A stretch of 63,806 bases of DNA, the filler included, from Collodictyon triciliatum (taxonomy: Eukaryota): the NCBI GenBank assembly GCA_043381765.1. It is 6 parts of 6 records of this genome, joined end to end, with 100 filler letters (N's around TTAATTAATTAA, not from the genome) between each part and the next. Parts side by side here need not be neighbours in the genome. Positions count along the whole stretch, not along the records: positions 1 to 18,904 come from JBHJMP010001327.1; 5 more parts are not named here. One strand, 5' to 3'. Positions 2,501 through 37,759 of the stretch are shown piece by piece (the stretch's first letter is position 1; each line of letters opens with the position of its first letter). A program made the position numbers and the translations under genes. The notes beneath the pieces were generated by a model, which ran no database searches, was not told where the DNA came from, and saw only the letters and a list, made by a program, of their open reading frames with translations.

Positions 2501-4180
2501 TTATGGGATGTACTGTCTTTGGACGCTCGTGTTTGATGTAGCAGCTTGAAGGAATTCGTGTATCGCATCGTTGACAGCATGTGGTTTCTCTTCATGAATC
2601 ATGTGTGTCGTGGCTGGTAGGATGAGAAGCTGTGCTCTTTGAAAGGACCGCAGCATTCGGACAGTGTGCTCGATTCGGATGCACTCATCATCCCCAGCTA
2701 TCAAAAGTACCGGTTGTGTAATTTGTCTGATGTCCGCTTCAGTCCACCGCGGTTCGGTGGTCCAAAGCTGTTTGAGTTTCGGACAAACTTGTGTGATGAA
2801 ATAGGATGGGTCATTCCGCGGGTTTAATTGCCGCATCAACTGGAGAGGACCTGTGGTATTCAAGTATATCGAACATGTTTAAATTATGGTGGCTGGGTCA
2901 TATAGTAATCAATTTTTCTATTCGCCTACTGTTTCAAAGACAGGTGTGACGATAAAAAAAAACTTATATGGTCAGGAGTACTAGATACAATACCAAACTC
3001 TGAGTTTGCTCTTTTATTTATTTTATTTTTTTTTGGTTGTTCGTTGTTCGTTGTTTGTTTGTTTGTTTGTATGTTTGTTTGTATGTTTGTTTGATTTGCA
3101 TGTTTTGGATAAAAAAAAATTTTTTTAAAAAAAAGACAAACTATATCGACAGAATAACATTTCAAGGCCAAAGGTATATAATCGTGCTCATTAATAGAAA
3201 AAAGGAAAGAAAAACGAACGTGCCTCCTCCCAGTAGTTTAGTCCAATCACTCTCAGAGGAGCATTCTTGTAGCTCTTGCAGAAACTTGGGTTCCAACCCA
3301 TCCCTATGTCGGGTAAGACATCATGTTATTTTGCGCATATGTTGGCATGGAGAGGGATGGTGAGCAACGAGTCTAAAGTTTTTTTCTGTGCTACTGAAAA
3401 ACACTATGGTACATTACATTTTTTTTCATAGGCTCTTGAATATTATCTGAAAGAGAATGTAAAATCTTTATATTTATACCATTAGTCTATTATATAGGTG
3501 AATTATTGAATCGCATTGGGTATATGTATTGAGGAATCCACCTACGTATGAAAGTTTGCCCCTATCAAAACAAGAGACTTGCATAAACCAGCATTGTGCA
3601 TGGCTAAATGAATTCCAATAATAGCGCCATCGCTCCAGCCAATAACATGGACATGATTAATCTATTTGGGATTGAGGATGTTATTATAATACGTTTTCTT
3701 GATTATGAAGATCATGATTATTAGTTTACCAAGAAGGAGAAAAGTCAGCCGAAATAAATTTAATGTATGTGAGTGAATATAAAAAAGGACATTTTCAAAT
3801 TTATGATAGCTATATGCCTGTAGATAATGAAGTAGATTCGCTACATCCGCAGCAAGAACATCATAAGAGAATGGTACTGCCCTAGAGAAAAGAAAAGAAA
3901 AGAAAAGAAAAGAAAAGAGAGATAAATAATCGAACAACTCATCACATCACTTTTAGAGCACTGGCGTCAGGAGCCACAGGCCCAACCTCACATCATCGCT
4001 TCTACCATGCCCGCGAGTCTCATACGCTACAACGCGGAATGAGTGCCTCAGTCTATCGGCCATCAAAGAGAATGTGGCTATTGTGCTCCCGCCGCCATGG
4101 AGAAGTAGAACTGTCTCGCTGTGGTGGGTGCCGCTTTCCTCGTAGTAGACTCGCAATGGCCCGATCGATGCGTGTGGCAT
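2501..4180 (-). CDS. Alpha/beta-fold hydrolase (BPHL/valacyclovirase-like GWSDG), 5 exons
   Basis: LLLHGGG oxyanion motif, RGHGRS, HVIGWSDGA nucleophile elbow, LLIAGDDE and ATTHMI catalytic Asp/His; exons splice in frame, two probably via GC donors. Confidence 0.88.
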
Positions 4181-4688
4181 GTCTCCCTCAGCGATTCTAT
4201 TAGGCGCAATTCATACATGACTCCCCAGGTTGTGGCAACTTGTTCCAGGGCAAACCGCGCGTGCGAAACGCCAAAGCCAAGGCCAGGACTTGTGTGGCGG
4301 CTCCGCTATGTGCGCGCCCAACAGAAATGTAAGATTGCGGCAAGTGTGTGACAGTCCAAAAAAGAAAAGAAAAGAAAAGAAAAGAATTCTGGACAATCTG
4401 CATCAACCGCGAGGCTCTCAAACTCACAACAGCCTATTAAAATAAATGGCTTCCTTGACATTGCACAATCTACTATGCCAAAGATATTTATTTTATTTGG
4501 TTTGACTTTTATTCTGCGTCCAATGAAGTATCTTCCAGGAAAAAGCGAACCGGCCTGCCGGAAAAAAATATTTTTAAGGACTCAATTATTGATTGTTAAT
4601 TATAATTTGGAAATACTGGATACGCTTAAAAATAAATAGCTTCATTAATTAAGCTTAACTCACTTGATTTTGAAGAAATATCATCATC

Positions 4689-7600
4689 TTAATCATCACC
4701 ATTCTCATCATCATTCTCATCTTCATCGTCATCGTCATCTTCATTCTCATCTTCATTCTCATCTTCTTCATCTTCATCATCATCATCATCTTCATCTTCA
4801 TCATCATCATCATCATCGTCATCTTCATTCTCATCTTCATTCTCATCTTCATCATCATCGTCATCGTCATCGTCATCGTCTTCAGTAGCTTTCTCTCTCC
4901 ACTCTACAGCTTTCTCAATGTCAATCTCAACGCCCCATCCATTCTTAAAGCACTCAGCAACAGCAGCAACAGCCCGTGGATATTTGTACTCTTCTCCTGT
5001 CATTTTACCCAAACTATCCCTAACTGTCTGTTTCATTTCGGCCAGTTCTTTCAAAACATGGAAGGCCATCTTTGAACCTTGTTGTGCTACTCGTTTCAAC
5101 TCTTCGAAATCTAATGACAGTCTTGGAAATGCAATGTGTCTCCAGAGATGGGATCTTTTTGTGTCCTTTTCAACAATCCATCCGTTTTCATAGCACTCAG
5201 CCATCGTATGGGCCTGAAGCTTTGTAAACTGGCCTCGCTTGCAATGAGAAACAAAGTCTGAATCAATAGAAATAGCGCCGATTGAAATTAAAAGGGATTT
5301 GTTGAATTGACTCAATCCTTTGATATTTCTGATTCGAATACATCCACCTTCCAATTTTCTTGGACCGATAATCTGGGCTGTCTTCACATCTTGAATTTTA
5401 TTCGTATCCAACAAGTTTATCACATCGCTTGTTTGGTTGAATACTGCGATGACTTCACCTGGTTTATCTTTCTTGATGAGATATTTTCCTTGTTTGTATG
5501 TCAACTCTGAAGTTTCTAGTCTGTGTCTTTGTTTTCTGGTGGCCATATCCCAAATACATACTGTTTTATCATCACTTGCAGAGGCTAACCAACTCTCACC
5601 ATTCGGCCCTTGGACACTACAAAGGATGTTGACACTGGCTGTATGCCCTTTTAATTTTTTGATTTCGCTTTCGGCGTCTACATCCCAAATACGTATTGTT
5701 TTATCATCACTTGCGGAGGCTAACCAACTCTCACCATTCGGCCCTTGGACACTACAAACACTCATGATGCAGCTCATGTGACCATCTAGTATTTTGAGTT
5801 GCTCCCCTGAATCAACATCCCAAATGAATATGAGATTTTCTCCACTTCCACCACCCGAGGCTAACCAATTTTCTCCATTTGGTCCTTGAATACTGCAAAT
5901 ACACATGATATAACTCATATGTCCATCTAAAGTCTTGATTTCTTCTCCTGTGATTGTGTCCCAAATACGGATTGCATTATCAAAACCTCCAGAAGCCAAC
6001 AAATTTTCTCCATTCGGCCCTGTAAAACTGCAAAGACTAGTGACACCATCAGCGTGACCATCTAGTTTTTTGGTTTGGTTTCCTGTGGCAACATCCCAAA
6101 GACGTATTGTTTCATCTCCACCTCCAGAAGCCAGCCAGTGTTCTCCACTCGGTCCTTGGATACTACAAACACTAGTGAAATAATTTGTATGCCCCTCTAA
6201 TGTTTTGATTTGGTTTCTGGTGACTATATCCCAAATACGTATTGTTTTATCATTACTTCCAGAGGCCAACCAGTTCTCACCATTCGGCCCTTGGATACTG
6301 CAAACTCTTTTGGTGCATTGTGCGTGGCCCTGAAGCGTTTTGATATGATTTTTTGAGGTCATGTCCCAGATACGTATTGTCCCACAATTTTTGCTTGTAT
6401 AATGACCGTTACCGCTTCCAGAAGCCAGCCAGCTTTCACCATTCGGTCCCTGAATATTGCAAATACTACAGACTTCGTCTGTATGTCTTTCAAATATTTT
6501 AATTTGATTCCCTGTGGCTACATCCCAAAGACGTACAGTTTTATCTTCACTTCCAGAAGCCAACCAATTTTCACCATTCGGTCCTTGGACACTGCAAAGA
6601 CACTTAATTTTATTTGTATGGCCTTCTAATGAAGCTATATGTTCTCCTGTGTCTACGTCCCAAATACTTATTGTTTTATCTTCACTTCCAGAGGCCAACC
6701 AATTTTCACCATTCGGTCCTTGGACACTACAAACACACTCAATATTATTTTTATGTCCATCTAGTGTTTTGATCTGATTGCCTGTGGTTACATCCCATAT
6801 GTGTATTGTTTTTTCCTTGACCTTAAGCCCATGAGAAGAAGTGCCTCCAGAAGCTAACCAATTTTCACCGTTTGGTCCTTGAATACTACAAACACCTCTG
6901 ACACTAGCATTTCTATGGCCTTCTAATTTTTTGATTTGTTTTCCTGTGGCTATATCCCAAATACGTATTGTATTATCAGCACTTCCAGAAGCCAGCCACT
7001 GTTCATTACTCGGCCCTTGAATACTGCAAATACTATAAATAGCGCTTGTATGGCCTTTCATGATTTTGATTTGCTTTCCTGTGGCTAAATTCCAAATAAT
7101 TATTGTACTATCCAAACTTCCAGAAGCCAGCCAACGTTCTCCATTTGGTCCTTGAATACTACAAACACTTTTGATACCCTCAGTGTGGCCCTCCAATGTT
7201 TTGATTTGATTTTTTGTGGCTATGTCCCAGATGTGTAATTCGTTATCATCAATACCTCCATATACCAGCCAATTTTCACCATTTGGTCCTTGAATATTGC
7301 AGACACTGCTAATATATCTGGAATGACTTTCTAGCTTATAATGAGGAATTCCAAATTCAGATGTGTTCATATTTGTCTCATCAAAGATACAATCACCAAG
7401 CGCTGAATTTGTGAAATTAACGCCACTCAAGTCGGCACCAGTGAGATTGGCACCATCTAGTATTGCATTGCTGAGATTTGCATTCGGAATTTTAATCTTT
7501 GATAAGTCCATTCCACCAAATGAAACGTTCATGAAATTCAAAAGTGTGATTGCATTAGATGCAGCCTTTGATTTGCTCTCATCACTTTGCGACATGTACA

Positions 7601-10600
7601 CAATCCTGAATAATGATGCCATTATCTGCTCACGATTCCATTCTTCATCCAGTCTTGCATCATCGAGAGTTTCACTGATGAATTCTTTGACTCTTGTAAA
7701 CTCCGCGGGCTCCTTATTGATCTCTATTTTTTCTGCATAGTAAGATAGGTATTCGCATGAGTTTAATGTTCTGGGGTGAACCCATCCAAGTTTATCTACA
7801 AATCTGTTTCTCATATCAGTCCAGAATTCGATTGCCTCATCATATAGCTTATTTTCTTTGCAGTATCTATTTGCTGTCTCACATGCTACCGAGCAGTCCC
7901 AGTTTTCATAGGATGACTTCTCAGCATGTCTAACAGCAGCAGTCTTGTAAAGAAGAATGGTTACTTCATGCTCCATTTTTTCTTCTATCAGCTTTGCGAT
8001 TCTTGTGCATTGTGGACCGTCTTTCAACGAAAAAATTGTCTTTGTCTGATTCCTTGTAATTGTTGCCTTTTGAAAGCAATCAACGCACTGAGCAGAGCTA
8101 AATAAAGAGATTTAAATATTTTTTTTCTTTTTCGTGTTCATCTCTTGTATGAATGAACTTTTCAACACTGAATTGAATAAGGGGGAACGAATTAACTGTT
8201 TAATATTTCCTAATTAGCTAACCAATTACCTCTGTAGTTCAAAATTTGTTCTGCCAACATTCTCGAGGGATGTCGCATAATCCACATGTTTTTCTCCCAG
8301 TGTCCTCTTGCGAATATCGAGAGTCTTTGTGTATGCCTCCAACGCACTCTTAAAGCTAAAATTAAAATATCAAATTTGAATGTAGTATAGAAAAAAATGA
8401 GATATCAAAGTCTCTTCCAATAGGGCACTGCAGCATAGATATACAGTACTATTGATAAATGGATGCATTTGTATTTTTACTCTTTCAAATCATGGCAGAT
8501 GCCTCCAATAAGCTCATAGCAATTGACTACATTTGGATGATTTTCACCAAGTCCATAAATGTAAATATCCAGTGATTGCTTCAGTAAGGATAGGGCTTCA
8601 GTTTTCCTACATGGCATGATATATTTAATTATTTGAGATTTTGGCTCAAATTAAAAAATGGTCGAAAAGCCTTCGTTCTAACTTTCCACTGGCGAGATGA
8701 ACATTCGCGATAAACTGAATGGTTGAAGCAACAGATGCATGATTGGCTCCCAATGATTTCTCCATGATAGACTTTGCTTTTTCGTAGTTCTCAATAGACT
8801 CTTTGTACCTTGGGTATATAATCAATTGAGTCCATTCAAAGAATAAAAATAAAAAAAATAAAAAATATACCAAAGTTTAGATTTATCAAACAAATTACTT
8901 TTTCCCTGCCAGAGAGACATGGCCATAGTTCTGGTACGATGTTGCCACAAGAGGATGCTCGTTTCCAACTTTCTTTTGGCGGATTTCCATGGCCTTTGTG
9001 TATTCAGCCAAAGCTTGCTCAATCCTAGATATAAAAGCATTAGCATATTTGTCATATAGAGTGACTTGACCTGACTGAAACTTTAACTATCTGAACGATT
9101 ACCTTGATTGCTTCACATAGATATCACCGAAGCGGTCATACGACTGAGCTATTTGCAGGTCATTCTCACCCATCAGTTCAATTCTCAGGTTCAATGATTT
9201 CTTGTATTCGTCAAGAGCCTCATCAACCCTATAATTTAGATATTGGTTGAGTGTACATTCCTTTTTGTTGAATTAATTTTTTAAAATCTAGGATGCCTTT
9301 CTCCCTTACTTGTTTTGAAGCTGATATATGAATCCCATTTCCTCGTGAATCGTAGCAATTCTCAGGTTATTATATTCATTTGGTTCAATAGACTCCAGAC
9401 ATTTCTTGTAATGAACCATGGATTCGGTCCAACTGTTGGATTGTGCGTTTTAAAAAAGATATAAAATAGCTGATTATCACATTTTCATTCCTCTTTTTGG
9501 AATTATAATTAAATTTTATGATACTTTCTTCTTTATTTTTCTCTTATTAATTTTTATATTTTTTTTTTACTTTTGGAGGTTCTTGTATACACGGCCAAGA
9601 TTCAAGTAGTCAGCAGCTTTTGCATCTATAAATAAATTTTGATCATTTATACGTTCACTCATTCGTGGTTTTTTTTTGTATAAATATTTAGAGGGTGAAT
9701 AAAATACCTTCTCTTTGATGCTTTCCAAGGCGTATATTAATAACTGACAACAAAAACGAGTTCTCAAAAGATTCCAAGAAAAATTCAACTAATAAATCTC
9801 CCACCTTATTGGTAGCCTAAAATAGATATTTTCAGCGAGTTGTTTCCAATAATGTTACGTTACATGATAAAAAAAAATGCAAAAATAGAAAATTATATAC
9901 ATTCGCCAGAGTTCCATAAACTTCCTTGTAGTTCGCTGCTCCACTTGCGTTGATTGCTCTCCAGCATGTGAAAAATTCGTAGCGATAACGACCGCCAAGC
10001 ATGGTGCTGATTACCTATGAAAAATGAATTAGTGCATATTGACATAATACCTCATAAACAAAAAATACACCAGTCCTAATTTTTAGAACATAAAGACGTT
10101 TACGTGTGTTTGTTTCATATATTCGGCAAGCAAGTCGAATGAATTTCCTTTCAAGAGTTGGTAACATATCTCAGCGGCAAGCTCTTCATCTACATCAACA
10201 GCCTCGGAATACTGCCCAAACAACCATTTTCCGTATTTTTCATGTGATTTTACCATTTCTTGGTTTGTAGAGAAGTAGACTTTTTCGGTGGTCTCCAAAA
10301 GCAGTTGATGGAAGTACATGTATCTATTGAATCCTCAAATTAATAAGTTTTCTTTAAATTAACTAATATTCAGTTATTGTTTTCTTTAGAAAAAATATTT
10401 GAATTAACCTTCCATTTCGCACAAATAGTGACTCGATGAGAGTAAAGAAGAAAGATTTCCTGTGTTAATTGTTTAAAATTATTGATAAAAGAAACATCTG
10501 CAGCGTCAAGAAAAGATATGAAAATCCTATAGTTGAGGGAAATAATTGAACCATTCAGTCAGCTCGAATCTTGCGCCAATCATGTCTTTCATGTACTTGT

Positions 10601-13600
10601 CCAAGTCACTCTCACTCAAGCCGATGCGAGAAACAAAGAGAACCTTCATTGAAGTGGCAACATACTCGACGCCTGATAGTTATGTTGTAAGGATATCGAT
10701 GCACCGTAGGGGAAAAATAGAACAGAGAACAAAAGAATTAATAAATGAATTCATTAAACCCTTTACCTTCTCTATCGAACTTCAGTTTCCAGCGCCGAAT
10801 GATGAGAGTGTAAAGCTCAAGTACACCATTTGTTGAAAGTAGTGTGACCAATTCATCATCTAGTTTCTCATAAACACCGAAAACCCTGACCTCATCCAGA
10901 ACAATGCGGAGATAGAGGGGATGGTCTATATATGTTAGATGATAGGAGTTTAATTAAATGATGTTATATTGGCAGAAAAATGAATGTGTGATAGATTCTT
11001 TATTATGTCACTTGGCTCACCAGTGTCTTCCAGGTCGTGCAGAATCATTCCCACTTGCTTTTCGCTCAGAGTTTTGTCGTAGCGGGTTAGAAATGATTCA
11101 ACACCATCCTCTACCTCACCCTTGGTCAACTTGGCAACAGGAATCGGTTCCAATCCACTCTGTACAGCAACCTTTGGAAATCAATCATTTAATTGTGAGT
11201 TCAATCAAGTTTGTAAAACAAATTCTATGAAAATGTGAAGTTTAAAAGGAATATTTGGGGAAAAAACACTAGGTAATAAAGTACCTTGCAAGATTCATGG
11301 GTGTGAATGGTTGAAACAACGATAGTAACATTAGTTGGTGTTTCTTTGGGTAACCAAGTCAGCAAGTGCGGAGCTAGTGTTCCTTGTGACGGATGGATTT
11401 GATTGGTGATACCGATGAGAAAGACAAAGTTCTTGTCCCTAAAAAAAGAAAAGAAAAATTAGATGAATATGGTAATTAGATATAATAAGGTATAAAAATC
11501 TTCAAAAGCTATCATCTTGGTATGGATAATACGTGTTTCTTTCTTGAATCTCTTTAAGCAGGCCCTGGACTCCATCTTTTTCGTATTCTAGAAGTAAAAT
11601 TAAGAGCAACATAAGTCACTAATTTGATGATATTTGAATGTGCAAAATTCATAAAACGATAGAATAAAAATATAAAAATTCGTAGTCAATAGCACAGTTA
11701 CCAGCTCCCTGCTTCTTTTGCCCAATAAAATCAGCAGATTTTATCACTAAAGTCCAAAAGCGAGTCGAAATACTATAAAAAAAAATCATTAGGAAAATGT
11801 TGTACATAAAAAAAATAAAGCACTAATATTAAGTCAAGTGTATAAACCTTTCCACATAGTTGCTGAGGTTGGTGCACCCAACAAAATGGAAAAAGACATT
11901 CAGTCCAGGGTGATTCCTTCCTTCCAGGTCTCTCGCAGCAGCAGCCATGAGCGATGACTTTCCAATACCTGACTCGGCAGCAAGAATGATGATTTTGGAC
12001 TTGTCCACATTGAGCTGGTTCATAGCCTGATGTAAAAAAGAGCCAAATACAACCTTAACAAATCATTTTTAACATTTCTGTTGGTGAATTTCATTTTAAT
12101 TTACTTGCTCCGTGATTGTCCTTAGAAGCTCCTTTCTTCCACCAAACCCAGCGAGGCGATGCATCTTAAACTGGTGCTGCGCTTGGTCTTCAGGGTCTCT
12201 CACCTTTTTTTTATGTAATTTGTTAATTCTTATATAATCAATAAAGTCGATTAACAGCTACACAATAAATTGATGTCCAGTTTTACGATTTGATTCCCAA
12301 AGTCACGCTCGATGGCATAGGCGAGGTGGTAAGTCACAAAGTCCGAATACTCCTTCGCTCCTTTGTAGATAACATGCCCGAACTTGGCCTTGACTTTTCT
12401 CTTCAATTCATTCTGTCTTTTGCGCTGAAAAAAATTTGTAAAATAAACAAATAATTCAATTGGAATTCTTGCACAGTGCAATATTGATTGGTAAGAAATA
12501 TGTTTGTCATGTTTACAGCTTCTTCGCCTTCGGCTTGAAACAGATTCCTTTCTCCCTCGCTTTTTGCATGCTCGACAGCATATTGCTCATCACGAAGGTA
12601 AAAGAAGGCGCGGCTGCATGCTGGTTTCCCAATCAGACATGCATATTGAATCTAAGAAAGCATTTTGATTATTATAATAATTTTATTTTATATGTGCATA
12701 CTTGAAGCAGATATCGAAATATGTAGAATTATTTCACCTCATATTCAGTCACACTCAACCCAGGCATTTCATTGATGAAAGGGAAACGGCTATTGGTCTC
12801 ACTTCGCCATTCCACCCAAATATCCTCCATGGTAGCACCAGGCTTGGTTTTCATGAGTTCCTTGAGGCGACCTTGCTTGTTAAGCTCGGTTTTGTCTTGG
12901 TCAGGAACCCATCCATAACGCGCACCAAGGGAGCACACAAAGTATGGGCATTTTCCGATGGAATCCAGACAGCGAATCACAACCTGTGACAAAAATGAAT
13001 CTGAGGTGCTTTTGTTCTAGAGTACAAGGAAATTGACGCTATATAGGTTCTTTACAAATACTCTCAAAAATTACCCATCCTTCACTACTGTCTTCCGATG
13101 TCAGTCCCCAGCGCAAATCTATAAAGACAAGCTCTAATCCCTTCGATTTTGCAAGTCTCTTTAGTCTGTTTTTTTAGGTAATAATATTTAGCAAGGATTA
13201 TAGCCTTATCGAACCTTCAAAATACATGAACATATCAAATAGAAAATTATTTGGACTCACTCAGGGGCTCCGTTCTTGAAAAACTCGTCTCTTTCTTGCT
13301 GCATGTCGCGGAAAGTCGAAGAAAGAAAAACACGGATGACGCGCTCATCAAAGAAGACAAGCGGCAATGGTGTGGACGTCTCGTATCTTTGTGGGGCTGG
13401 ATTCCACTTCTTGTATTGCCTCTCCTTCAGGTCTTCACGAGCAAGCTTCATCTAATTAGAATGCAAAATTATTTGTCTTGATTGATCGAATTTTACATAA
13501 TTATGTAATAGTCGGCCTTATTATGTTATAGTACTACCTTGTCAAGAAGAATGCAAGTGCGAATGAGTACGACAGACCCTTTCTCGTCCAGGTCAAATCC

Positions 13601-13959: not shown

Positions 13960-14113
13960 AGGAGTTATTACACCCAAAGCTCCTAAGTGGTTCACACTTT
14001 TTCCGATAAGATACCAGATAATTCCATCGAGCAAATCTAGGGGAAGGGGTTCATCAGCAATTTCTAGAAATGTAAANNNNNNNNNNNNNNNNNNNNNNNN
14101 NNNNNNNNNNNNN

Positions 14114-15399: not shown

Positions 15400-18300
15400 G
15401 TAGCTGCCTTGTGGACGTATCTGAATATACGAAATTTTGAAGAAAGATACTATGAGAAAATATCGTGTGCATGGACTCTCCAAGATTAATGCTAAGGTCC
15501 TCATTCGTCAGCCAAAAAGTTAGCCTATGTAGTCATTGGCAAGTTTCTATAAGTACAGCCTTGATATGGCTTTCAAAATACTTTTTTTTTTTTTTTGCTG
15601 TGTTTATATAAAGGGACATAAATCAGGAAATTTATCAAAATAACCTTGCAAGATTATCTTTACAGAACAGAACTTAAATCCCTCCTAGTAAGAAAGAATA
15701 AAACATTCATCCAACCAAACTTTAAAATCAGTATCACGTGCGTTATCCTTAACCATTTTCCGCTTCTGTTCGAATTAGTGAAATGTACCTCGCATATGAC
15801 CTCTGCATTCTGGTGTAATGGCAAACTCACTGCATTTATGCCATTTTTGATTCCCAAATGTATATCCATAAAATACCTCCTAAAAATGAGAGAAAATCCT
15901 TTGCCTCTTGACATAAGACTCGCTGGGTCCTTCCACCCAAATTCGGTAGATTGAGTCACAGAGCTATCATCCCACTTGAAGCCAGATGATATATGCGTGG
16001 ATAAAATGAGCTGCCTTGTGACCCATTCTGTCTGTGGGAGTCGTTAATCTCCTTAGTGATGCATAACAGAATTTCGAAACGCATGGTCTGTTACTGAGTC
16101 CTGAGGGGGGGGGTGGGTGCTTTCGTCTCTCTTAATTGCCTTCGCGGAGGTTTTTGTTGACCCGGTCGTGGCAATAGTGGATGCTCCTATATCTACGGAT
16201 TTAGTTGTGGCTGGTGGTTCAGAGTACATCCTTTAGAATTTTGGTGTTGCCGCTTCCCTCTGGGTTTGCGCACGTTTAGCTTGTGCCTCCGCCATAGAAA
16301 GGTGTGTTTTCTGGTGTGATTTTCAGGTTCGCGTTCTCCACTTTTAGGATTGGGAATGAATTTTAAACTTGCTGGGTTCCTCCTTTACATTTTTCTGCTT
16401 TTTCTCTATTTATANNNNNNNNNNNNNNNNNNNNNNNNNNNNNNNNNNNNNNNNNNNNNNNNNNNNNNNNNNNNNNNNNNNNNNNNNNNNNNNNNNNNNN
16501 NNNNNNNNNNNNNNNNNNNNNNNNNNNNNNNNNNNNNNNNNNNNNNNNNNNNNNNNNNNNNNNNNNNNNNNNNNNNNNNNNNNNNNNNNNNNNNNNNNNN
16601 NNNNNNNNNNNNNNNNNNNNNNNNNNNNNNNNNNNNNNNNNNNNNNNNNNNNNNNNNNNNNNNNNNNNNNNNNNNNNNNNNNNNNNNNNNNNNNNNNNNN
16701 NNNNNNNNNNNNNNNNNNNNNNNNNNNNNNNNNNNNNNNNNNNNNNNNNNNNNNNNNNNNNNNNNNNNNNNNNNNNNNNNNNNNNNNNNNNNNNNNNNNN
16801 NNNNNNNNNNNNNNNNNNNNNNNNNNNNNNNNNNNNNNNNNNNNNNNNNNNNNNNNNNNNNNNNNNNNNNNNNNNNNNNNNNNNNNNNNNNNNNNNNNNN
16901 NNNNNNNNNNNNNNNNNNNNNNNNNNNNNNNNNNNNNNNNNNNNNNNNNNNNNNNNNNNNNNNNNNNNNNNNNNNNNNNNNNNNNNNNNNNNNNNNNNNN
17001 NNNNNNNNNNNNNNNNNNNNNNNNNNNNNNNNNNNNNNNNNNNNNNNNNNNNNNNNNNNNNNNNNNNNNNNNNNNNNNNNNNNNNNNNNNNNNNNNNNNN
17101 NNNNNNNNNNNNNNNNNNNNNNNNNNNNNNNNNNNNNNNNNNNNNNNNNNNNNNNNNNNNNNNNNNNNNNNNNNNNNNNNNNNNNNNNNNNNNNNNNNNN
17201 NNNNNNNNNNNNNNNNNNNNNNNGGGGCGCTAATTTAATTTTTGCTACTCACGGTAGTCTAGACCGAGATGTGGAGCTAGGGTTCGCTGTTGCTACACTT
17301 GGCACAGGCATCTTCTTCCCATGCGTTTTTTCATATAAGGAACTGTGTCTTGGTCTGTCGTTTGGGTAGTCTAAGGTGATGCGCATTTTCCAAGGTATCA
17401 CTTGCTTTCCCTGGAAAACCCTTTTGAGAGGAATTTCCTGATATAGTAGTGGTAATGAATTGGGGTGCTGGTTTTTCTTCCTCCATGGCCTCGGTGGGTG
17501 TGCCCGGGGGGTTGAACTTGTCTTTGCCTACTGAATTGCGCGGATTGTGTAAGTGTTTGCCCTGATGATTGCCTTGTTTGGTCTTCTCTTTACGTTTGGG
17601 GCGAGGTATGAAGGGAAGGCGGAATCCTTGTAGGTTTGTATTCTTATTTGGTACTTTGGGTAGTTCTGATGCCGGAAACTTGACCAGCGTATCTTTAGTC
17701 CAGACTTGTCCTCGGCTTCCTAGTAAGCTAAGATAGGCGAGAATGTTGCTTTTCAGGCCTCTTCGATGTCGCCCTTGGTGAAGCCTGAGGGGGGATATCG
17801 CTGATAACAGCGGAGCGAAGGGGTGGCCTCTCTTGGTTCAGGCGAAAAAAGCGGCCAAGTATTTTAATCTCCTCCGTCTTGGCAAACTCCTCCGTTTTTT
17901 TTTTTTTTTTGGTGTGGAAAAGCTACCGTGTATCCTTAGATTGAACGCAGAGTTGGATAATGACGTTTTCTTCGTCGCCCTTGAGTTTATTTATGACTTG
18001 GGTGAGTTCTTTCTTTGGTTGATTGCGGTTATGGTAATTCTAGGGGCAGCTTGTGCTAACCTCGAGGGCGGACGTAGCAGCCGGGTCCGTGCAGATTCTG
18101 CTCCTGGGTTCCCTTTGGTCAGTGCGGCAGAAGAGCCCTGGTAGAGCGATGCGTTCGATTCTCGTGCGTCCGGCTTGGTCGTGGTGATCCGTCCAAGGAA
18201 ATGAGATTCGTGCTACGGCCAAATAAGCGCTCGTCAGCGTTTCAACCGGAACCTTACAACTCAGAAATATCGTTACTGAGTAAACCCCATTCCAACGCGT

Positions 18301-19053: not shown

Positions 19054-19187
19054 CGTTTGTTTTGTTTTTTTCCTTTTTTTTTTTTTCGTTTTTCGTTATT
19101 CAATATTCTTTCATTTGTTGTTTGGTATATTTGAACGTCTGTTTCTCTCTCAGTTTTGAAATCAGCCGAGTTTGCGTACAAGCCCAC

Positions 19188-19470
19188 CTTTTCCGTTCCC
19201 TCTGGACTCGTGGTGGCCAGCTTTTGAAGACTCGTTGGAGAAATAGAGGATGTCGTTCTGGCCGATCAAGTCGATGTCTGTGATCTCCGTCCCGTCCTTG
19301 TTGAACGCTTTGGTGGCGGACCCCATTCCGAGCTTCTGTGCGCCCTGCACAAGCAGATGAGCCAGATTCCACGAGTTGGGCACGACCAGATCTTTTCCTT
19401 TGGAAGTGTCGCCCATGCGGTGGATGGTGATGGAGCGCCCTTCGTCAAACCCAAACTCTTCAAAGTCCAT
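19188..19470 (-). CDS. First exon of a KHA-domain (KCTD9 N-terminus-like) protein, truncated by contig end
   Basis: SITIHRMG..KGKDLVVP..LAHLLVQGAQKLG..ATKAFNKDGTEITDIDLIGQNDILYFS fits the KHA pattern; candidate GT donor near 19187. Confidence 0.7.
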
Positions 19471-20812
19471 GGGCCTGCCTTTCAGGATCGTGGGGGGAAA
19501 TACAGAAGCCTCGTGAGAAAAAAGAAACTGCGCCCTCAGCTGTGAGAAGAAAAAAGAGTGGCTCTTTGCCCGAGGAGTATAGCCCGAATCGTCGCCACTT
19601 CGCGTTTCCAAATGTTGTCCCGTTTATCTCTTTCCAACGCCCAAGAACAAAAAAACGAGGACAGGATAACGGTGACGATGAAAAAAATGAAGAAATCAGA
19701 AAGAAAAAAAAGAGTATTGCAGAAAGCGAGCCCTCCTTCAATCCTGAGCTTTCTTCTCGAATGACACGGTAGTTAAGGACAAGCATCTAAATCCGCCTTC
19801 CAGCCAAGATATTTGCAATCTCTCGATGCCTCAACCACGTGCGACTGCGAAGCCTTGCAAAGTCTGGTAGGCAGTCGTCTGGTGGCGCCGTGTGATTCAG
19901 GCCTTCCGATTGGACAAACGGACAACTCCAATTTTGGTTTGGCACGGATCGCAATACCGGGGACACAAGGGCACAGGGGACAGTGGCTGCAGGGCGGAAG
20001 GCGAAGGCGAATCCGTTGTGTTTTCCAAAATTGGAATTTTCGTTTGTTCTTTAATGCCTCATCGTTTCTGGAATATATTATAATATATAATTTTGAAAGC
20101 CTCATATTCTGCTTTACTTCGCTAACGCATGTAATTACTCATCGTGTACGTGATATTGGGTGAGTAGGGTTGATTTTGGTGCCTTTGAGTGGTTCCGTAC
20201 AAAATAATCCAAAGGAAGGAGTATTTCAATGAATATTTGCAAGGGAATTGTCACGCTTGGGGCGCTTGTATGATTGCTTGCCTTTGCGCATGGCCGAAAC
20301 GCGAACTCACAACAACGCAGCACCCGCGTTATCCACCCTGTTGGCCTTTAACACACTCCATTCATTACACCGAAAAAGAGCTATCATGCGTGCTTGTTGG
20401 TATCGCTTATCCATCTCCATTGATATCTCTTTCGGATCGAGCCGCCTTCTTTCAAATAACCTTCTCCATAGTGAAACCTCCGCACAAATAAATCGTGTGG
20501 AGCCACCCTTCTCCTGACACACAGATCAATACTGAGTTTTACCTCGCTTTGTGTTCGCAACGCGTAAAGCCTTACTTTTTCTCCTCTTACAACTACTTGA
20601 GTCTCCACTTTCTTGATCGTTTCCTCTATTTTCTCTTCCAACACGCAAAACCAGCACCCGAAAAACAAACAAAAAAAAACCGGATCTATTTCCTGTGAGC
20701 CTTGGCCACTGTATTACAACGAACGATGAAAAGTATCTTTCGTTAACTAAAAGAGGAACTCCTCCTTTATAGATCAAGGAAGAAGCGTAACGGCTACAGT
20801 ACTGGTTATCTC

Positions 20813-23570
20813 ATGAGCCAGGGTGCAGAGGAGCTCAACAACGTTGCTCGCTCAATCATGGCGATCCGGACCATGGCTGAGTCAGCCACCGAAGTGGGAG
20901 ACTTCCCTCGGTATGAAGGGTATTTGTCAAAGTACGCAAACTTCCTCAAGGGTTGGCAAACTAGATTCTTTGTCCTAGAGACGGGCGTCCTCTATTATTT
21001 TAGCGACTACGAGACGCCGTCCAGCAGGGGGAGCATCAACCTGCAAACAGCCGTCATCACGATATCCACCAGCGACCTGCTGCGTTTTGATATCGACAGC
21101 GGCTCGCAGGTCTTCCATCTGAAGGCCCGCACAGCACAAGAGCGCCGCAAATGGATTTCATACCTTCGACGACACAAGGAAGTCCTGAGCAAACTTGCTC
21201 GCCGGGGCTCAACAGACCCTTCGGGAAATCCATCAGGGAAAGAGACGTCTGGGTCAAAAAGCGGCTCGGAGGGGATGGCTGGAATCCCTCATTGGGCGAT
21301 GCCAGACGGTGCGCGTTTAGTCAAGGTCCAGACAGATGTTTTTGCCAAAGAACTCGCCGAGCTTATCCAGACACTTAACCGAATGAGCCTTCGAAAGAAT
21401 TCAGATCCAGATCACAAAGAAGAGAGCGACAGCCTGCCAAAAGAGCAACACGGAAAAGAAAAGCAGAAGGAAAAAGGAAAAGGAAAAGAAAAAGACAAGG
21501 AAAAGGAAAAGGAAAAGGAAAAGGAAGACGCAGACCAAAATGGAGATGCACAGGATAGTTCTCCTCTGGTAGATGGGGTGTCAAAGCCTATCCGACAAAA
21601 AGGGAAAGTCGAAAAAAAAGGGGACAAAATTATAGTCGATCAAGTTTACCTGGATGAAATCTATGAAAAGATTAACCGGGTCAATATTGCACACTGCGGA
21701 TTGCAGGATTCCACTACAAAGTGCATAGGTGGAATGCTCGAAGGAGAACAGCAATTGAAAAAGAAAATTAGTGACTTAGAAGAAAGATTAAAGCAAATTG
21801 GGTCTCAAACAGGGGAAACGATTGCAGGACCTCAACCAACAAATGAAAGAGTTCTTCGTTGGACCGAAAGCGTCCCTGTTGATTCATTCTCTGAGATTGG
21901 CACTGACGTGTTCTACGATGCTATGGATGGGGATGGTACTATGCGCTCTGAGGAATCTGGCAGCGTAGGGGAGTTGGAGTTTGAAGACACTTTGACAGAG
22001 CCTGCTCCAGAGACAAAGTCACCTTCGGTGAAAAAGGTGACTCTCAATCTCTCCCCTACAAAGTTTGGCGGAGAACAATCAGATGGCGGAAGTACGGTAC
22101 AGATGAAAGCTCAGAGTACTTCACCACGTGGAACACCTGGACATGTCAACTCTCCACAACAAAACCAACAATCAAATATACCAAACCAACATGGGGCATC
22201 AAGTGCGGATACATCACTCTCAATGCCGATATCTCTGTCCACAACACCAACTAGAATCATCTCATCTATGTTTATTCCCAAAGACGCCCCTAAGAGCTGG
22301 CAAAGAAGACTTTCACTCCCATCCGACCGCCCTGCTGCCAAAGAAATTAACTTGTGGAATATTTTCAAAGATTCTGTTGGAAAAGATTTGACTAAAATCA
22401 CCATCCCCACTGTATTTTGCGAACCTATCACATTCCTCCAACGCATGGCAGAGGATTTGGAGTACTCTGACTTGGTAGACACAGCACTCGACATCACTGA
22501 CCCTTACCTTCGATTGGCATATGTCAGTGTCTTTTCTGTTTCAAATTATGCATCTACCTCCGGTCGGTTGTTCAAGCCTCTCAATCCTCTCTTGTTTGAG
22601 ACTTACGAGTGCATTCGACCAGACAAGGGGATATTGTTTATCGGTGAGCAAGTCAGTCACCATCCACCAGTTGGAGCAGCCTACTGCATGTCTGACAAAG
22701 GTTGGTGGATGAATTTTGATTCACCCATATCCAGCAAATTTTGGGGCAAAAGCATGGAGATCCACCCTCTGGGGATTTTCCACTTGCACATGGACAAAAC
22801 GGGTGAGCACTACTCGTGGAACAAGGCTGTGACAGTGGTAAACAATATCATCCTCAGCAATAGGTGGGTTGACCACTCAGGGTCTGTGCGAGTTAATAAC
22901 CACAAGACGGGCGACTATTGTGTCATAAACTTCATCCGAAAAGGCTGGTTCTCTGGAGCCTCGTATGATATTGCCGGAGAAGTCTTTGATGCTGAGGGAA
23001 ACTCCCACTATGAACTTATGGGGACATGGAATGAGTCGATTTCGTTCCGGCCGTCCAAATCCAATACAAAATGGACGTTGATGTGGCAAGCGAACGTGAG
23101 ACCTCCACACAGCAAGGAACAGTATTGCTTCACATCGTACACGATGCAGTTGAATGAAATCGACCCGATATCCAAGGCAAATCTTTGTCCGACAGATACG
23201 CGTTTCAGGCCAGACATTCGAATTCTGGAGGAGGGAAACATGGAACAGTCAAGTAACACTCACTTCCCACCTAATTTGGGGGTTTTTTTTTTAGATAAGA
23301 ATACCTGTATAAAATGAAAATGGCACACAAACTATTGTTAATTTATCGACACCTTACAAATTGGCAGATGCAGAGAAGGCTCGACTAGAGGATAAGCAGC
23401 GTTCTAATCGCAAGGAGCGAGAGAAGAACGGACTTCCAGCCACCGACCCAATATGGTTCGAATACCGGTATGACGAGGACAGCAAGTCGGAGGGATGGGC
23501 CTACAAAGGGGGATACTTCGAGACGCGTTTGCGAGGCGACTGGGGCTCCAATGTCCCTGACTTATACTAA
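20813..23570 (+). CDS. Oxysterol-binding protein-related protein (PH - FFAT - ORD); exons 20813-23252 and 23368-23570
   Basis: PH domain (YEGYLSKYANFLKGWQTRFFVL), FFAT-like DVFYDAMD, EQVSHHPP signature, PTDTRFRPD; phase-1 GT-AG intron gives EQSNAEKARLE. Confidence 0.95.
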
Positions 23571-30700: not shown

Positions 30701-33700
30701 AAGAATACGAAGGCCGGAATTCGGAGCGTGTATTGGGCAGTCAAAATGAAGCTGTCAATCGTGATGCAAGAAAAGACTCTGAGAGAGAATCTCCTGAAAG
30801 CGAAGAAATATATAGTGAAGAGGAAAGTAATTACGAAGTTGTTTTTGAAGACAATGTGCAAGAACCCAAATATGAAGGCGACAAGGATTTACCCCAAATT
30901 AACTTAAGTACCACAAAAGAGATGGAAACAGAAGATGATGCAGGGGAGGAATTGTCACCCACAAGCTCTGGTATATCTCTCAGCGAAAGACTTGTACCGA
31001 AGTCACCGAATCAAGAGAGAATCTCTACCTCAAGTCCCCATTCAAATAGACCACTCTCAAAAAGCGCTACGGATAGCCCTACAAAGTCTCCAATAAAGGT
31101 CTCTTTTCTTCGTTTGGGTTAAACTTCAATCAATATAACATGACAATTGTCCAAAAATTGTCATGTTATGTGATTTCTTACAATTATAAAATGATTTCTC
31201 AATAATTCTTTTCTGTGTTACCTCAGGTAAGGACAACTGGGAGCACTGACGAAAGAATTTCACGTCTCACACAACTTCTGACAAAATCTAAGGTGAAATT
31301 GTGATTTACTCTGCCATTCCCATTTTTCATTTTGGTTATCTTTGTTTCAAAAGTGTAATTTTTTATCAATATTTTTTTAAAAAAAAACTTCAGTCTATGA
31401 ATGAGAGTCTTCAATCCGAATTGGAGAAAGTCACCAGAGTGTACCAAGAGAGTATTCAAAAAAGTTTGTTTTGCCCACTTATATTCTTTACCAGAGAATT
31501 TTCAAGAAAAATAAACTCTAAAAATACATAAATAGTTGATTTATTGCAACAGTTATTGAAGCAAAAGCAATTATCAGCAGAGATTTCAAAATCGAGAGAT
31601 TCTACGCCTATTGTCCCTCAGGTAATTACAATCATGATACCAAAGCTGCAAATTATATATCGACATTCCTCTACTTATTATTATTATGATTATGATTCAA
31701 AACGTGAGTTGAGTTGTCGAAAACTAAATCTCTTTACTTCGAAAAACAGGTCGACGAAACGTCCATTCTAAAAGAGAAGCTAGCATCATTAGAGTATGGC
31801 TATTTATAACATTATCAAGTTATTAAATTTGGGTGCCATGTTCAAGTCATCAAGCCCCTCGATGATTGTCTAACTCTTTTTCTTCTTTTTTTTTCCACTT
31901 TATTCCATTCAATTGATTGCTATTTCTTAAAATAAATACTAACATGACTACACTAGGGTCAAGCTGGAAACAAAATCAAACGAACTATTTAAAACACAAG
32001 AAAAATTGTTGCAATTAAGTAGTCAACCTTTAGCGAAGGTATGAGTGTAACCATTTCAGAATTAAAACCAAGCGATGGGCATTTATATCAGCCAAATCCA
32101 GACTTCTTTAAACAAGATGAAAATGGCATTAGATCTCAACATTCGATAGCCCGTCTCCCAATCTTCCTAATTCACATGGAATATCATTACTGCGCGTTTG
32201 AACTAATTTAATTGGATAAAATATGTTCATTTTGTCTTATCCTTAGATTACAGACTTAACTACATCGTAATTTGCGAATAGAAAGATGAAGTTACACATG
32301 ATGTCGGTGAGCCTGAACAACAACAACGGGTCGACCCGGTAAAAGAGATATATGAAGAGCGCATTTCTTCGCTGGTGCATGACCATGTTTCCATGTCATC
32401 AATACATTTTGAGAGGTAACAACACCCTCTCAATGTCAATTCACGTTCCTTGGTTATAAACCCTCACCTCCATTTCTATTGGCATTTTTATTTACTTATT
32501 TTCTATTTACATATGTACATTTATTATCAAAATAGAGTCAGAGACATGTACATTCGCTTCCAAAAGTTTTGCTCAGAAAATTTCGTATCATTACACAATT
32601 TCTGGGAAGGTTTGCCGGACGTGCCCAACGCAACTCAAGTATGGCTTTGCCCACTTCATATATGCCAGTTTTGAAATGTTATGAGTTGAGTTTACCTTAT
32701 TCCACAGAATGTGGAAAGAAGCGTGGGTGATATACTAAATCATTCAGCTACGCTACTTGATGCTTCCCTGGAGAAGTTTTGCCAGACACTTTTGGTATTT
32801 ACCTATGAATATTTTTTTACTCCAAATGTAATAGAAAATATATTATTGCACGGCATATATTAATATTTGTCTAACTAAATGAGATGATACGTTTACATAT
32901 CAACTAGGCCGAGAAGGCAGCCAATGAGCTGTCCATTAACGAATCGAATTCTCATAATCAACAACTGCAATCGCTCCTTAATATTTCCAAGCAAGCTNNN
33001 NNNNNNNNNNNNNNNNNNNNNNNNNNNNNNNNNNNNNNNNNNNNNNNNNNNNNNNNNNNNNNNNNNNNNNNNNNNNNNNNNNNNNNNNNNNNNNNNNNNN
33101 NNNNNNNNNNNNNNNNNNNNNNNNNNNNNNNNNNNNNNNNNNNNNNNNNNNNNNNNNNNNNNNNNNNNNNNNNNNNNNNNNNNNNNNNNNNNNNNNNNNN
33201 NNNNNNNNNNNNNNNNNNNNNNNNNNNNNNNNNNNNNNNNNNNNNNNNNNNNNNNNNNNNNNNNNNNNNNNNNNNNNNNNNNNNNNNNNNNNNNNNNNNN
33301 NNNNNNNNNNNNNNNNNNNNNNNNNNNNNNNNNNNNNNNNNNNNNNNNNNNNNNNNNNNNNNNNNNNNNNNNNNNNNNNNNNNNNNNNNNNNNNNNNNNN
33401 NNNNNNNNNNNNNNNNNNNNNNNNNNNNNNNNNNNNNNNNNNNNNNNNNNNNNNNNNNNNNNNNNNNNNNNNNNNNNNNNNNNNNNNNNNNNNNNNNNNN
33501 NNNNNNNNNNNNNNNNNNNNNNNNNNNNNNNNNNNNNNNNNNNNNNNNNNNNNNNNNNNNNNNNNNNNNNNNNNNNNNNNNNNNNNNNNNNNNNNNNNNN
33601 NNNNNNNNNNNNNNNNNNNNNNNNNNNNNNNNNNNNNNNNNNNNNNNNNNNNNNNNNNNNNNNNNNNNNNNNNNNNNNNNNNNNNNNNNNNNNNNNNNNN

Positions 33701-36700: not shown

Positions 36701-37759
36701 CACCTCGTGTTGTGCTATGAAGATATACCATTCATTAATTTCGCTACCTAAAGTTGACTAAATCTGATAATTTTCAGAAAGCATCAAAAACCCCAAAAAA
36801 GATGAGAAATTTGATACACTTATCAAATTGTTAAAGGTGATATTGTACTATGAAAACCACGAGAATATTTATATGATTTTTCTTGGCATATTCATGTTTA
36901 TTTAATTTTTACATGGACATGACACCTGTCTTAGCGCAATATGGAGGTGAAAAGAAGATGGGAAAATCGACGCCAAGAACTAAGTGCTGAGAGAACTAAA
37001 AACTTGGAACTCATTTTGCTGGGGTAAATCTCATCAATAATTGATTAAGTATCGATCACTTTTAAATTATTTTTTTTTCTAGAGTGAAAGGGATTAAGAT
37101 ATATGAGGAGAATTTTATTTCNNNNNNNNNNNNNNNNNNNNNNNNNNNNNNNNNNNNNNNNNNNNNNNNNNNNNNNNNNNNNNNNNNNNNNNNNNNNNNN
37201 NNNNNNNNNNNNNNNNNNNNNNNNNNNNNNNNNNNNNNNNNNNNNNNNNNNNNNNNNNNNNNNNNNNNNNNNNNNNNNNNNNNNNNNNNNNNNNNNNNNN
37301 NNNNNNNNNNNNNNNNNNNNNNNNNNNNNNNNNNNNNNNNNNNNNNNNNNNNNNNNNNNNNNNNNNNNNNNNNNNNNNNNNNNNNNNNNNNNNNNNNNNN
37401 NNNNNNNNNNNNNNNNNNNNNNNNNNNNNNNNNNNNNNNNNNNNNNNNNNNNNNNNNNNNNNNNNNNNNNNNNNNNNNNNNNNNNNNNNNNNNNNNNNNN
37501 NNNNNNNNNNNNNNNNNNNNNNNNNNNNNNNNNNNNNNNNNNNNNNNNNNNNNNNNNNNNNNNNNNNNNNNNNNNNNNNNNNNNNNNNNNNNNNNNNNNN
37601 NNNNNNNNNNNNNNNNNCATTTTGCACCAATAGCTGAGCTCAAGCCCGATGGTGCATGAGATTCCAAGGGCAAATATCTCACGAAGCTCTGACATCCCTA
37701 ACGCTGCCACTGCACTTTCCACAAAGGCACAAGAGAATGTGAAGAGTTATATCAAATAA
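24780..37759 (+). CDS. Large many-exon coiled-coil/low-complexity protein of unknown family; may be more than one gene; spans two gaps
   Basis: Chain of short GT-AG exons with heptad-like content (e.g. MSELEVLVQELRVQKQSL, LEKAYKEVGRL) and one ~1.4-kb S/E/K-rich exon at ~29678-31098; ends are uncertain. Confidence 0.55.
24945..25018. repeat. Intronic (TGTGAT)n
   Basis: Visible. Confidence 0.9.
35170..35289 (-). mobile_element. Short poly(A)-tailed insertion flanked by 17-bp direct repeats (candidate target-site duplication) within an intron
   Basis: TTCTGTATTAATGTCTT at 35170-35186 and 35273-35289 brackets a poly-T tract plus ~35 nt of unique sequence. Confidence 0.6.
36098..36236. repeat. 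(CTTTTT)n simple repeat
   Basis: Visible. Confidence 0.9.

Follow-up and report, generated by a model that had tools for sequence, protein, structure and literature searches.

A predicted DUF4062-NACHT gene of Collodictyon triciliatum carries a 14-blade WD40 array with signs of old and weak unit exchange

The DNA analyzed here is a stretch of 63,806 nt from the Collodictyon triciliatum assembly GCA_043381765.1 (the window, along which all coordinates count), and its main feature is a WD40 array on the minus strand at 5436–7358, within a predicted multidomain gene that is referred to below as the target. Splitting the translated open reading frame (ORF) at [IL]W[DN] gives 13 clear units, R1–R13, and a putative degenerate 14th blade recognized by its sequence pattern, all of them in a stop-to-stop frame of 1140 codons at 4689–8111 on the minus strand (Table 1). 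Ten of the 13 units are 45 aa long, and R4 (54 aa), R7 (53 aa), and R11 (47 aa) are longer because of residues inserted after the ASG motif; R1 lacks the start of strand D. The same array was recovered independently by Tandem Repeats Finder (period 135, matches of 71–77%), by a repeat search that returned an 80-nt core in 13 copies, 64–79% identical to the reference and spaced by 135 nt with extras of 3 to 24 nt, and by Pfam, where WD40 (PF00400) covered 10 stretches with an E-value of 6.4e-97 and several propeller-level families also scored above their cut-offs. An array of this kind had been described in a first-pass annotation of the window, and its 13 repeats, the insertions in repeats 4, 7, and 11 (9, 8, and 2 residues), and the residues it listed after GH (TEGIKS, TSAIYS, KNNIEC, TNKIKC, TDEVCS, AQCTKR, TNYFTS, ADGVTS, and MSYIMC) agree with the translation, whereas its span of 5545–7335 is right within ~25 nt, the upstream end being off, and the array lies on the minus strand. 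The invariant columns in R2–R13 are H13, C21, G25, P26, E29, L32, A33, S34, and W44, and the most variable columns (16, 18, and 37) each hold 8 different residues among the 12 units. The unit type, 45 aa with a long conserved A-B loop (QGPNGExW), is family-specific. The blade count of 14 fits 2 × 7, and the array probably forms two seven-bladed propellers. A PDB sequence search with the array returned only generic matches (FBXW7, the designed protein Tako8, PkwA, and WDR5), and PADLOC matched only a generic repeat model.

The gene model was obtained by a spliced-ORF search forced through five RNA-supported GT..AG introns, and the exon borders without RNA support are approximate. The resulting 2148-aa protein is free of stop codons and has the domain order DUF4062, NACHT, helical region, TPR, linker, pentapeptide repeats, 14 WD40 blades, conserved block, Sel1, and acidic tail, with the array carried by the 3.4-kb last exon. 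The introns are unevenly placed, the first ~1012 codons being divided among 24 short exons and the last 3.4 kb (linker, pentapeptide, WD40, and Sel1) being intron-free; a bacterial origin of the C-terminal module or intron loss through homogenization may account for this. RNA support comes from contigs of public sequencing runs compared with window positions 4400–13600. Intron joints were found in contigs of runs X1, X2, and X5 (CT..AC on the plus strand, equal to GT..AG on the minus strand; 76–91 nt), X1 contigs are identical to the window (0 differences) at 4890–5150, 5319–5516, and 5685–6002, and a polyA metatranscriptome contig has 1 difference over 5729–5996. In the RNA contigs a further 5' exon precedes the intron at 13452–13537, so the gene may in fact start farther upstream. 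The DUF4062 profile matches two ORF pieces in order, profile positions 1–18 (E 3.1e-4) and 45–72 (E 7.3e-5), each alone below the cut-off because introns split the domain. AAA_16, NPHP3_N, and NACHT match the ORF piece 11829–12062 with E-values of 2e-4 to 3e-3, just below the gathering score. No match to a HET domain was found in the N-terminal Pfam scan, which has DUF4062 there instead, and the third DUF4062 exon gave nothing usable when searched against PDB sequences. Since DUF4062 directly precedes a NACHT-type NTPase with WD40 and TPR repeats, the gene is, on its predicted domains, a member of the DUF4062(TeTIR)-NACHT STAND family that includes TEP1, NWD1, NWD2, and NPHP3. At the other end, Sel1 clusters lie nearest to the C-terminus in the Atlas comparison (0.80, a lead only). 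The acidic tail has ~60 residues, nearly all Asp and Glu with some Asn, and its codons form a repeat of GAT/GAA type with period 3/6; the aligned Diphylleia relatives described below have no such tail at their C-termini.

Table 1. Coordinates of the target gene, its WD40 units, and other features of the window
Feature	Position	Strand	Remarks
Whole coding region	4689–13451	-	25 exons, ~2148 aa; ATG 13451–13449, stop 4689–4691
RNA-supported introns	8607–8682, 9626–9707, 12204–12286, 12652–12737, 12984–13074, 13452–13537	-	the last in the 5' untranslated region
DUF4062 TIR-like domain (predicted)	12738–13451	-	Pfam PF13271; exons 13261–13451, 13075–13156, 12738–12983
P-loop exon, NACHT-type NTPase	11878–12014	-	ESGIGKSS
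TPR_12-type repeats	8646–9086	-	PF13424, E 4.4e-7 and 1.7e-6; part of a longer TPR stretch
Pentapeptide repeats	7383–7484	-	PF00805, E 6.6e-10; just upstream of the array
13 clear WD40 units	5547–7358	-	unit split, Tandem Repeats Finder, Pfam, repeat search
R1	7224–7358	-	
R2	7089–7223	-	
R3	6954–7088	-	
R4	6792–6953	-	9-residue insertion after ASG (B-C loop)
R5	6657–6791	-	
R6	6522–6656	-	
R7	6363–6521	-	8-residue insertion after ASG (B-C loop)
R8	6228–6362	-	
R9	6093–6227	-	
R10	5958–6092	-	
R11	5817–5957	-	2-residue insertion after ASG (B-C loop)
R12	5682–5816	-	
R12 codons 21–45, candidate gene-conversion tract	5682–5756	-	72/75 nt identical to R13
R13	5547–5681	-	
R13 codons 21–45, other tract copy	5547–5621	-	
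Putative degenerate 14th blade	5436–5546	-	MATRKQ...EVIAVFN; position kept relative to the last blade of P0365
Conserved block	5247–5366	-	GG.I.I.N..GL..FNK.LL...GA.S.D.DF(..HC); after the array; no Pfam match
Sel1 repeat	4878–4976	-	PF08238, E 1.3e-6, 29.1 bits (cut-off 30.7)
Asp/Glu-rich tail	4692–4877	-	period-6 array 4680–4877
Second NLR-like gene	47609–54226	-	intronless 2205-aa ORF; distant family member
Alpha/beta-hydrolase gene	2504–4210	-	just downstream of the target gene
Piece with KHA potassium-channel dimerization domain	19165–19623	-	E 1.7e-11
Oxysterol-binding protein with PH domain	20747–23314	+	E 4.8e-110

The nearest relatives of the target are three transcripts of Diphylleia rotans, a collodictyonid of the CRuMs clade: P0365 (EukProt EP00002, 2619 aa), P0366, and P0367. 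They were found in an exhaustive phmmer search among 1.84 billion representatives and are, among the matches listed, the only proteins with the target's WD40 unit type. Word-index searches with the array, at near and shorter lengths, missed these relatives and returned only WD40 proteins 25–44% identical to it, mostly bacterial. Several GP[NDS]GE loops occur only in P0365 (7) and P0366 (6), the other proteins having at most one, among the 140 newly listed of the best 150 matches, and P0367 has by alignment a 45-aa unit matching that of the target. Residues 9–1940 of the model align with residues 348–2366 of P0365 in one collinear high-scoring segment pair (45.5% identity, 2064 columns, 1781 bits), and all 24 upstream exons align to P0365 at 27–82% identity, each over at least 86% of its length. 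The DUF4062 exons are 49–82% identical to P0365, and the motif SVTEYE, which may hold the counterpart of the DUF4062 catalytic residue, ends the domain in both proteins. In P0365, DUF4062 scores 42.4 bits (cut-off 24.7), NACHT 25.2 bits (cut-off 26.7; profile positions 4–158 of 167), and TPR_12 has an E-value of 3.5e-40. The two proteins share the unit core GP(N/D)GE.WLASGS.DKTIRIWD and a nearly identical unit consensus, pentapeptide repeats before the array (kept also in the second NLR-like gene of the window), and the conserved block and Sel1-like end after it. The conserved block is common to P0365 (36% over 142 aa, E 3e-27) and the C-terminus of P0366. P0365 differs from the target in having 20 blades instead of 14, a lower internal unit identity (0.42 compared with 0.57), interior units without a positional match to those of the target, and ~340 aa of additional N-terminus with a calponin-homology (CH) domain (residues 191–277, E 4e-11) that has no counterpart in the target model.

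Pairwise identity of the target units averages 56% (36–71%) at the amino acid level and 69% (55–81%) at the nucleotide level, with R5/R6 being the closest pair (81%) and R12/R13 reaching 76% overall and 96% over codons 21–45. The first-pass annotation had likened this to the high internal conservation of the Podospora HET-E repeats. HNWD repeats are given as 80–100% identical in the relevant parts of PMC12222747 and PMC13449251, and a 2014 definition of high internal conservation, as it stands in the corresponding part of PMC4986451, is >85% identity over at least 100 aa. The target units, at most 71% identical, lie below both values, and by these strict criteria the array is outside the HNWD high-internal-conservation class, and a HET-E-like degree of conservation is not supported. 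The portion of PMC7159879 (eLife 2020) available for comparison contains nothing specific on WD40 repeat identity. A looser 2026 rule, taken from part of PMC13449251, compares units with their consensus (T-REKS Psim ≥0.7); the identity of the target units to their own consensus is 0.70–0.73 in our own calculation, which is not that of T-REKS, and 119 of 228 retrieved WD40 proteins also reach 0.7. These 228 proteins, with at least six units each, come from searches with the target and are biased to regular arrays; the target, with a mean internal identity of 0.58, takes rank 92 among them (median 0.56). Its level of internal identity is common, being ordinary within this set.

The divergence of the units at synonymous sites is high. 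Nei-Gojobori estimates over R2–R13 give a synonymous divergence (dS) of 0.885 for all columns and 1.01 for the fixed core (columns 21–35), where the nonsynonymous divergence (dN) is 0.099 and dN/dS is 0.10, and the core codons for Gly, Pro, Leu, and Ala vary freely among units. The lowest pairwise dS is 0.395 (R5/R6). With dS at ~0.9–1.0, and at least 0.395 in every pair, whole units were not homogenized recently, and the unit tree is star-like with support values of at most 80. The earlier statement that the core is shared also at the DNA level holds only with qualification: R5/R6 and the 3' part of R12/R13 are close, but over all pairs of R2–R13 the synonymous sites of the core are scrambled, and the core is not maintained by DNA homogenization. 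Diversifying selection at the variable positions, which had been suggested from the HNWD parallel, did not emerge. The eight most variable columns have a dN/dS of 0.92; taken by themselves, columns 37 and 39 give 1.57, a value from two codons only. Among the 3' halves of R5, R6, R8, R12, and R13, where saturation is lowest (proportion of synonymous differences 0.30), dN/dS is 0.96 in the variable columns and 0.10 in the others. In codon site models (our own implementation), M0 gives a dN/dS (ω) of 0.34 with a tree length of 9.6 substitutions per codon, and M1a places 61% of sites at ω 0.18 and the remainder at ω 1. M2a gives no improvement over M1a (2ΔlnL of 0), and a site class with ω >1 is absent. 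In simulations, which assume the unit tree of the target and no recombination, ω of 4 was found in 8 of 8 cases, ω of 2.5 in 7 of 12, and ω of 2 in 6 of 12, with false positives in 0 of 12. Because the M2a test had this power, strong and sustained positive selection is unlikely, and milder or episodic selection may be present.

In the WD40 fold the D-A and B-C loops form the top face of the propeller, and the A-B loop lies on the opposite face. From this established geometry, the variable columns of the target would be D-A-loop and B-C-loop columns placed on the top face, and the QGPNGExW stretch would be the A-B loop on the opposite face. Column by column, the identity among target blades is correlated with the average profile of the 227 other WD40 proteins (Spearman 0.67, p 1e-6) and to the same degree with P0365 (0.66), and the least conserved columns of the generic profile are those of the target, namely the three after GH and the residues flanking the B-C-turn aspartate. 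The variability pattern of the target is the generic WD40 one. The variable binding surface proposed in the first-pass annotation agrees with the predicted loop positions of the variable columns, but the pattern itself is not special to this array.

Comparison with P0365 shows conserved edges around an unmatched interior. The upstream flank and the first blade align to P0365 at 41% with one gap, and the downstream flank aligns at 36% from the degenerate last blade (P0365 2474 onwards). Between these flanks lie 12 interior units in the target and 18 in P0365, and no positional signal between them was found at any offset (p 0.82). Unit identity is 0.570 within the target, 0.419 within P0365, and 0.459 between them (permutation p 0.0002), and on a tree of 44 units the units cluster by protein (9 label changes; shuffling gives 20.3 on average, and in none of 200 shuffles is the number as low). 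Twelve of the 13 target units fall into one weakly supported group, T1 pairs with the first P0365 blade (Da1), and monophyly of R2–R13 was not rejected in the approximately unbiased test (p 0.60). Conserved edges with unmatched interior units are the expected product of unequal exchange. Within the array, R12 and R13 match at only 31 of 60 nt over codons 1–20 beside their nearly identical codons 21–45, and at codons for the same amino acid they differ synonymously in 1 of 21 and 5 of 6 cases in the 3' and 5' parts, respectively (Fisher p 4.3e-4; Bonferroni cut 6.4e-4 for 78 pairs). A GENECONV-like run test gives a global p of 0.0125. More generally, the 3' halves of R5, R6, R8, R12, and R13 are 84–96% identical and their 5' halves 47–70%, and the similarity matrices of the two halves are uncorrelated (Mantel r 0.07). 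A partial-unit tandem duplication was considered as the source of the R12/R13 tract and ruled out, since it would have left R13 and the 14th blade with a common 5' half, which they do not have.

Contigs of the sequencing runs provide a view of the size of the family. At ≥85% identity, 337 contigs of run X1 and 377 of run X2 lie on the gene, mostly at 85–95%, and the summed contig depth is 200–600 in the array compared with 5–60 elsewhere in the gene. Of the X1 contigs, 258 fit one place only. Hundreds of contigs at this identity, with the depth far higher in the array, suggest that the source organism or organisms carry a large number of close paralogs that expanded recently. The two runs belong to one study and are labeled as different organisms, and both contain pieces identical to the window. 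Close paralogs of the X1/X2 kind were absent from both protein collections searched and from metagenome contigs, where the search for relatives gave 41 pattern matches with the array and 68 with the unit alignment, none of them confirmed. No sequencing run contained half of the words of the stretch, the best share being 0.28; small shares occur in freshwater and subsurface metagenomes, which we do not read as evidence of habitat. Joints in the contigs that skip units or run backwards (5706>7254, 6312>6480, 6598>6914, 7035>6186, and others) were not counted as length polymorphism, because their sides are only 23–48 nt long at ≥85% likeness and they may stem from paralogs or k-mer chimeras.

A more distant relative lies in the window itself. 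The second NLR-like gene has a helical-type N-terminus of ~650 aa that belongs to no Pfam family (Atlas helical-repeat clusters at 0.85–0.88, leads only), followed by NACHT (23.7 bits), pentapeptide repeats, 14 WD40 blades that diverge from one another, and two or more Sel1 repeats. DUF4062 is missing from it, so that N-terminal modules are swapped within the family. The match of blade positions between the target and this paralog is weak (p 0.017) and driven by blade 12, which is the best match of all target units; spread of one blade type from it was rejected as an explanation, since Diphylleia shows that the unit type is the family consensus.

Taken together, we lean toward the reading that the array is the C-terminal sensor of a DUF4062(TeTIR)-NACHT STAND/NLR-like protein, with interior blades that, once it and the Diphylleia relative had separated, would have been amplified and/or homogenized within the gene through gene conversion or unequal crossing-over, while the blades at the two ends of the array kept their positions. 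The process would have been old and slow, most units having since diverged to near-saturation at synonymous sites; the scaffold is held by purifying selection (dN/dS 0.10), and the loop residues that follow GH or flank the B-C-turn aspartate would drift approximately neutrally (dN/dS ~0.9–1.0), individualizing the blades in the way usual for WD40 propellers. A small number of short conversion tracts of later date may be present in the 3' halves of R5, R6, R8, R12, and R13. By analogy with the family, a ligand on the propeller faces would relieve autoinhibition, the NACHT module would then oligomerize, and the clustered N-terminal TIR-like domains would cleave NAD+; ligand sensing and an NADase output of the target protein are predicted in this way, and any immune role is hypothetical. 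Several observations weigh against this reading. The pairwise homoplasy index (PHI) test for recombination is not significant (p 0.5–0.9), and the mosaic of synonymous divergence survives correction for multiple testing in one unit pair only. The unit tree is built from 44 columns and has no strongly supported branch. Under a star model, identity between the genes is expected to be about sqrt(0.570 × 0.419) = 0.49, and 0.459 is observed; the unit consensuses of the target and P0365 are nearly the same, the target units being closer to it, and since this shared consensus explains much of the identity excess the gene-specific signal is modest. The case for concerted evolution comes from comparing proteins with those of a single species, and both the double propeller and the assignment of the variable columns to the top face follow general WD40 knowledge; the NACHT scores are slightly below the Pfam cut-off in the target, in the paralog, and in P0365.

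Some of these observations also fit an explanation without any exchange, in which an ancient array is kept near one consensus by constraint and the differences between blades form a fixed, conserved partner surface. The protein would then have a housekeeping role as a regulator or scaffold, comparable to NWD1 or NPHP3, and would be no diversifying receptor. The purifying selection on a core with scrambled synonymous sites, the consensus common to the target and Diphylleia, the near fit of the star model, the PHI result, the generic variability pattern, and the presence of 14 blades in both window genes are all consistent with it, but it leaves the 18 compared with 12 interior units between conserved flanks, the missing positional signal of the interior beside first and last blades that retain theirs, the 72/75-nt tract next to a saturated 5' half, and the 3'-half group unrelated to the 5'-half pattern to be accounted for, and we find it rather doubtful. 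A receptor of the HET-E/HNWD type, with units constantly shuffled within and between paralogs and a top face under diversifying selection, would share the clustering of units by gene, the unequal unit numbers of relatives, the R12/R13 tract with its run test, a consensus identity at the looser Psim value (in that part of PMC13449251), the many related transcripts with the highest depth in the array, and contigs that join different units, such as 5706 to 7254. It is very unlikely in view of units 56% rather than 80–100% identical, the dS of every pair, the absent gain of M2a despite power together with the PHI result, the generic columns and ordinary internal identity (rank 92 of 228), the short sides of the joints, which may be assembly chimeras or belong to other paralogs, and the 258 of 337 X1 contigs that fit one place only. 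Recombination-driven evolution, as the first-pass annotation had framed it, keeps its footing in the clustering by gene, the unit numbers, and the tract, but with dS ~1 it would be old; judged from the sequences, the array appears to lack both the continuing reshuffling and the positive selection of the fungal HET-E genes, and its concerted evolution would be old and weak. On a wider view, the family as a whole would be a large and recently expanded one of TIR-like-NADase/NACHT receptors of a unicellular predator from CRuMs, and gain, loss, and conversion of WD40 blades would be continuing both inside genes and across paralogs, with the target as an older member and others having near-identical arrays, a possibility that we hold to be quite unlikely. 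An artefact, either a collapsed repeat assembly or a pseudogene, is scarcely credible: repeats misassemble easily and the window contains 2845 N, but the 1140-codon frame is open and the 2148-aa model without a stop, no unit pair exceeds 81% nucleotide identity and the units thus differ enough for unique assembly to be expected, within the array, contigs of independent runs agree perfectly with the window across several hundred bases, and the core is under purifying selection.

Among known systems, human TEP1, NWD1, NWD2, and NPHP3 have an architecture related to that of the target. According to the parts of two preprints that deal with the domain (10.64898/2026.05.01.722283 and 10.64898/2026.09.21.753143), DUF4062 is a TIR-like NADase and is found directly before a NACHT ATPase with WD40/TPR in these four proteins and in a few protists. 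The target likewise has the TIR-like DUF4062 directly upstream of the NACHT-type ATPase, with TPR and WD40 repeats farther along, but it joins TPR, pentapeptide, WD40, and Sel1 repeats into one unusually composite tail, lacks TROVE/vWA, and apparently stands in a large, recently expanded paralog set. The HNWD genes of Podospora anserina (het-e, het-d, and het-r) and other fungal NLRs with high internal conservation resemble the target in that a STAND of NACHT type ends in a WD40 sensor, probably built as two propellers. In both, the columns of the D-A and B-C loops vary, units of one gene are more similar to each other than to those of another gene, and the first unit is differentiated (as given in part of PMC13449251). 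The target differs from them in its 56% unit identity, dS of ~1, and lack of an ω >1 class, whereas in HNWD four sites evolve under diversifying selection and array length varies from strain to strain (sections of PMC4986451, PMC12222747, and PMC13449251). It also has an N-terminal DUF4062 instead of HET and a 45-aa unit in which the A-B loop is longer. Cyanobacterial and other bacterial STAND-(pentapeptide)-WD40 proteins (for example P0011, P0037, P0041, and P0043) are the best word-index WD40 matches (28–41% identity); several combine nSTAND/NACHT, pentapeptide repeats, and long regular WD40 arrays with a similar or higher internal identity, but their units have 40–42 aa and an SPDG loop, and these prokaryotic proteins lack the DUF4062-TPR front and the Sel1 end. 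In the STAND ATPase APAF-1, a protein ligand is recognized by two WD40 propellers at the C-terminus, which control oligomerization, as is well established and also stated in one of the preprints. The target resembles it in the STAND ATPase with C-terminal propellers and differs in that APAF-1 has NB-ARC in place of NACHT, a CARD effector, and mutually divergent blades.

The remaining features of the window are other genes and repeats. The best match of the oxysterol-binding protein is from D. rotans (58%), with animal ORP3 next (~45%); together with the three D. rotans transcripts, it points to a freshwater eukaryote that is probably related to that lineage, D. rotans being its nearest sampled relative. 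Runs of N lie at ~1090–1170, 14070–14106, 16410–17230, 32990–33900, and 37110–37640 and are flanked by purine/pyrimidine-rich microsatellites (AAAAG, CTTTCTTT, and alike), consistent with masked or unassembled repeats. No tRNA genes or Rfam families were found in a scan of the window.

The finding places a complete TIR-like(DUF4062)-NACHT-repeat receptor, as predicted, in CRuMs, a deep branch near the base of Amorphea, for which no link to NACHT genes was found in the literature searched, and it thereby bears on the age of the TEP1/NWD-type TIR-NACHT-WD40 architecture. A fixed core with variable loops is usual in regular WD40 arrays and alone is no evidence of a HET-E-like mechanism, for which the synonymous divergence between units is a quick discriminator. 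The target receptor shows signs of family expansion and blade turnover, which bears on how widely NLR-type sensors diversify their repeats by unit exchange. If blades are indeed still being exchanged across a large and recently expanded family, which we consider quite unlikely, this would be a protist counterpart of the way in which fungal HNWD genes generate diversity, for sensing prey, symbionts, or viruses.

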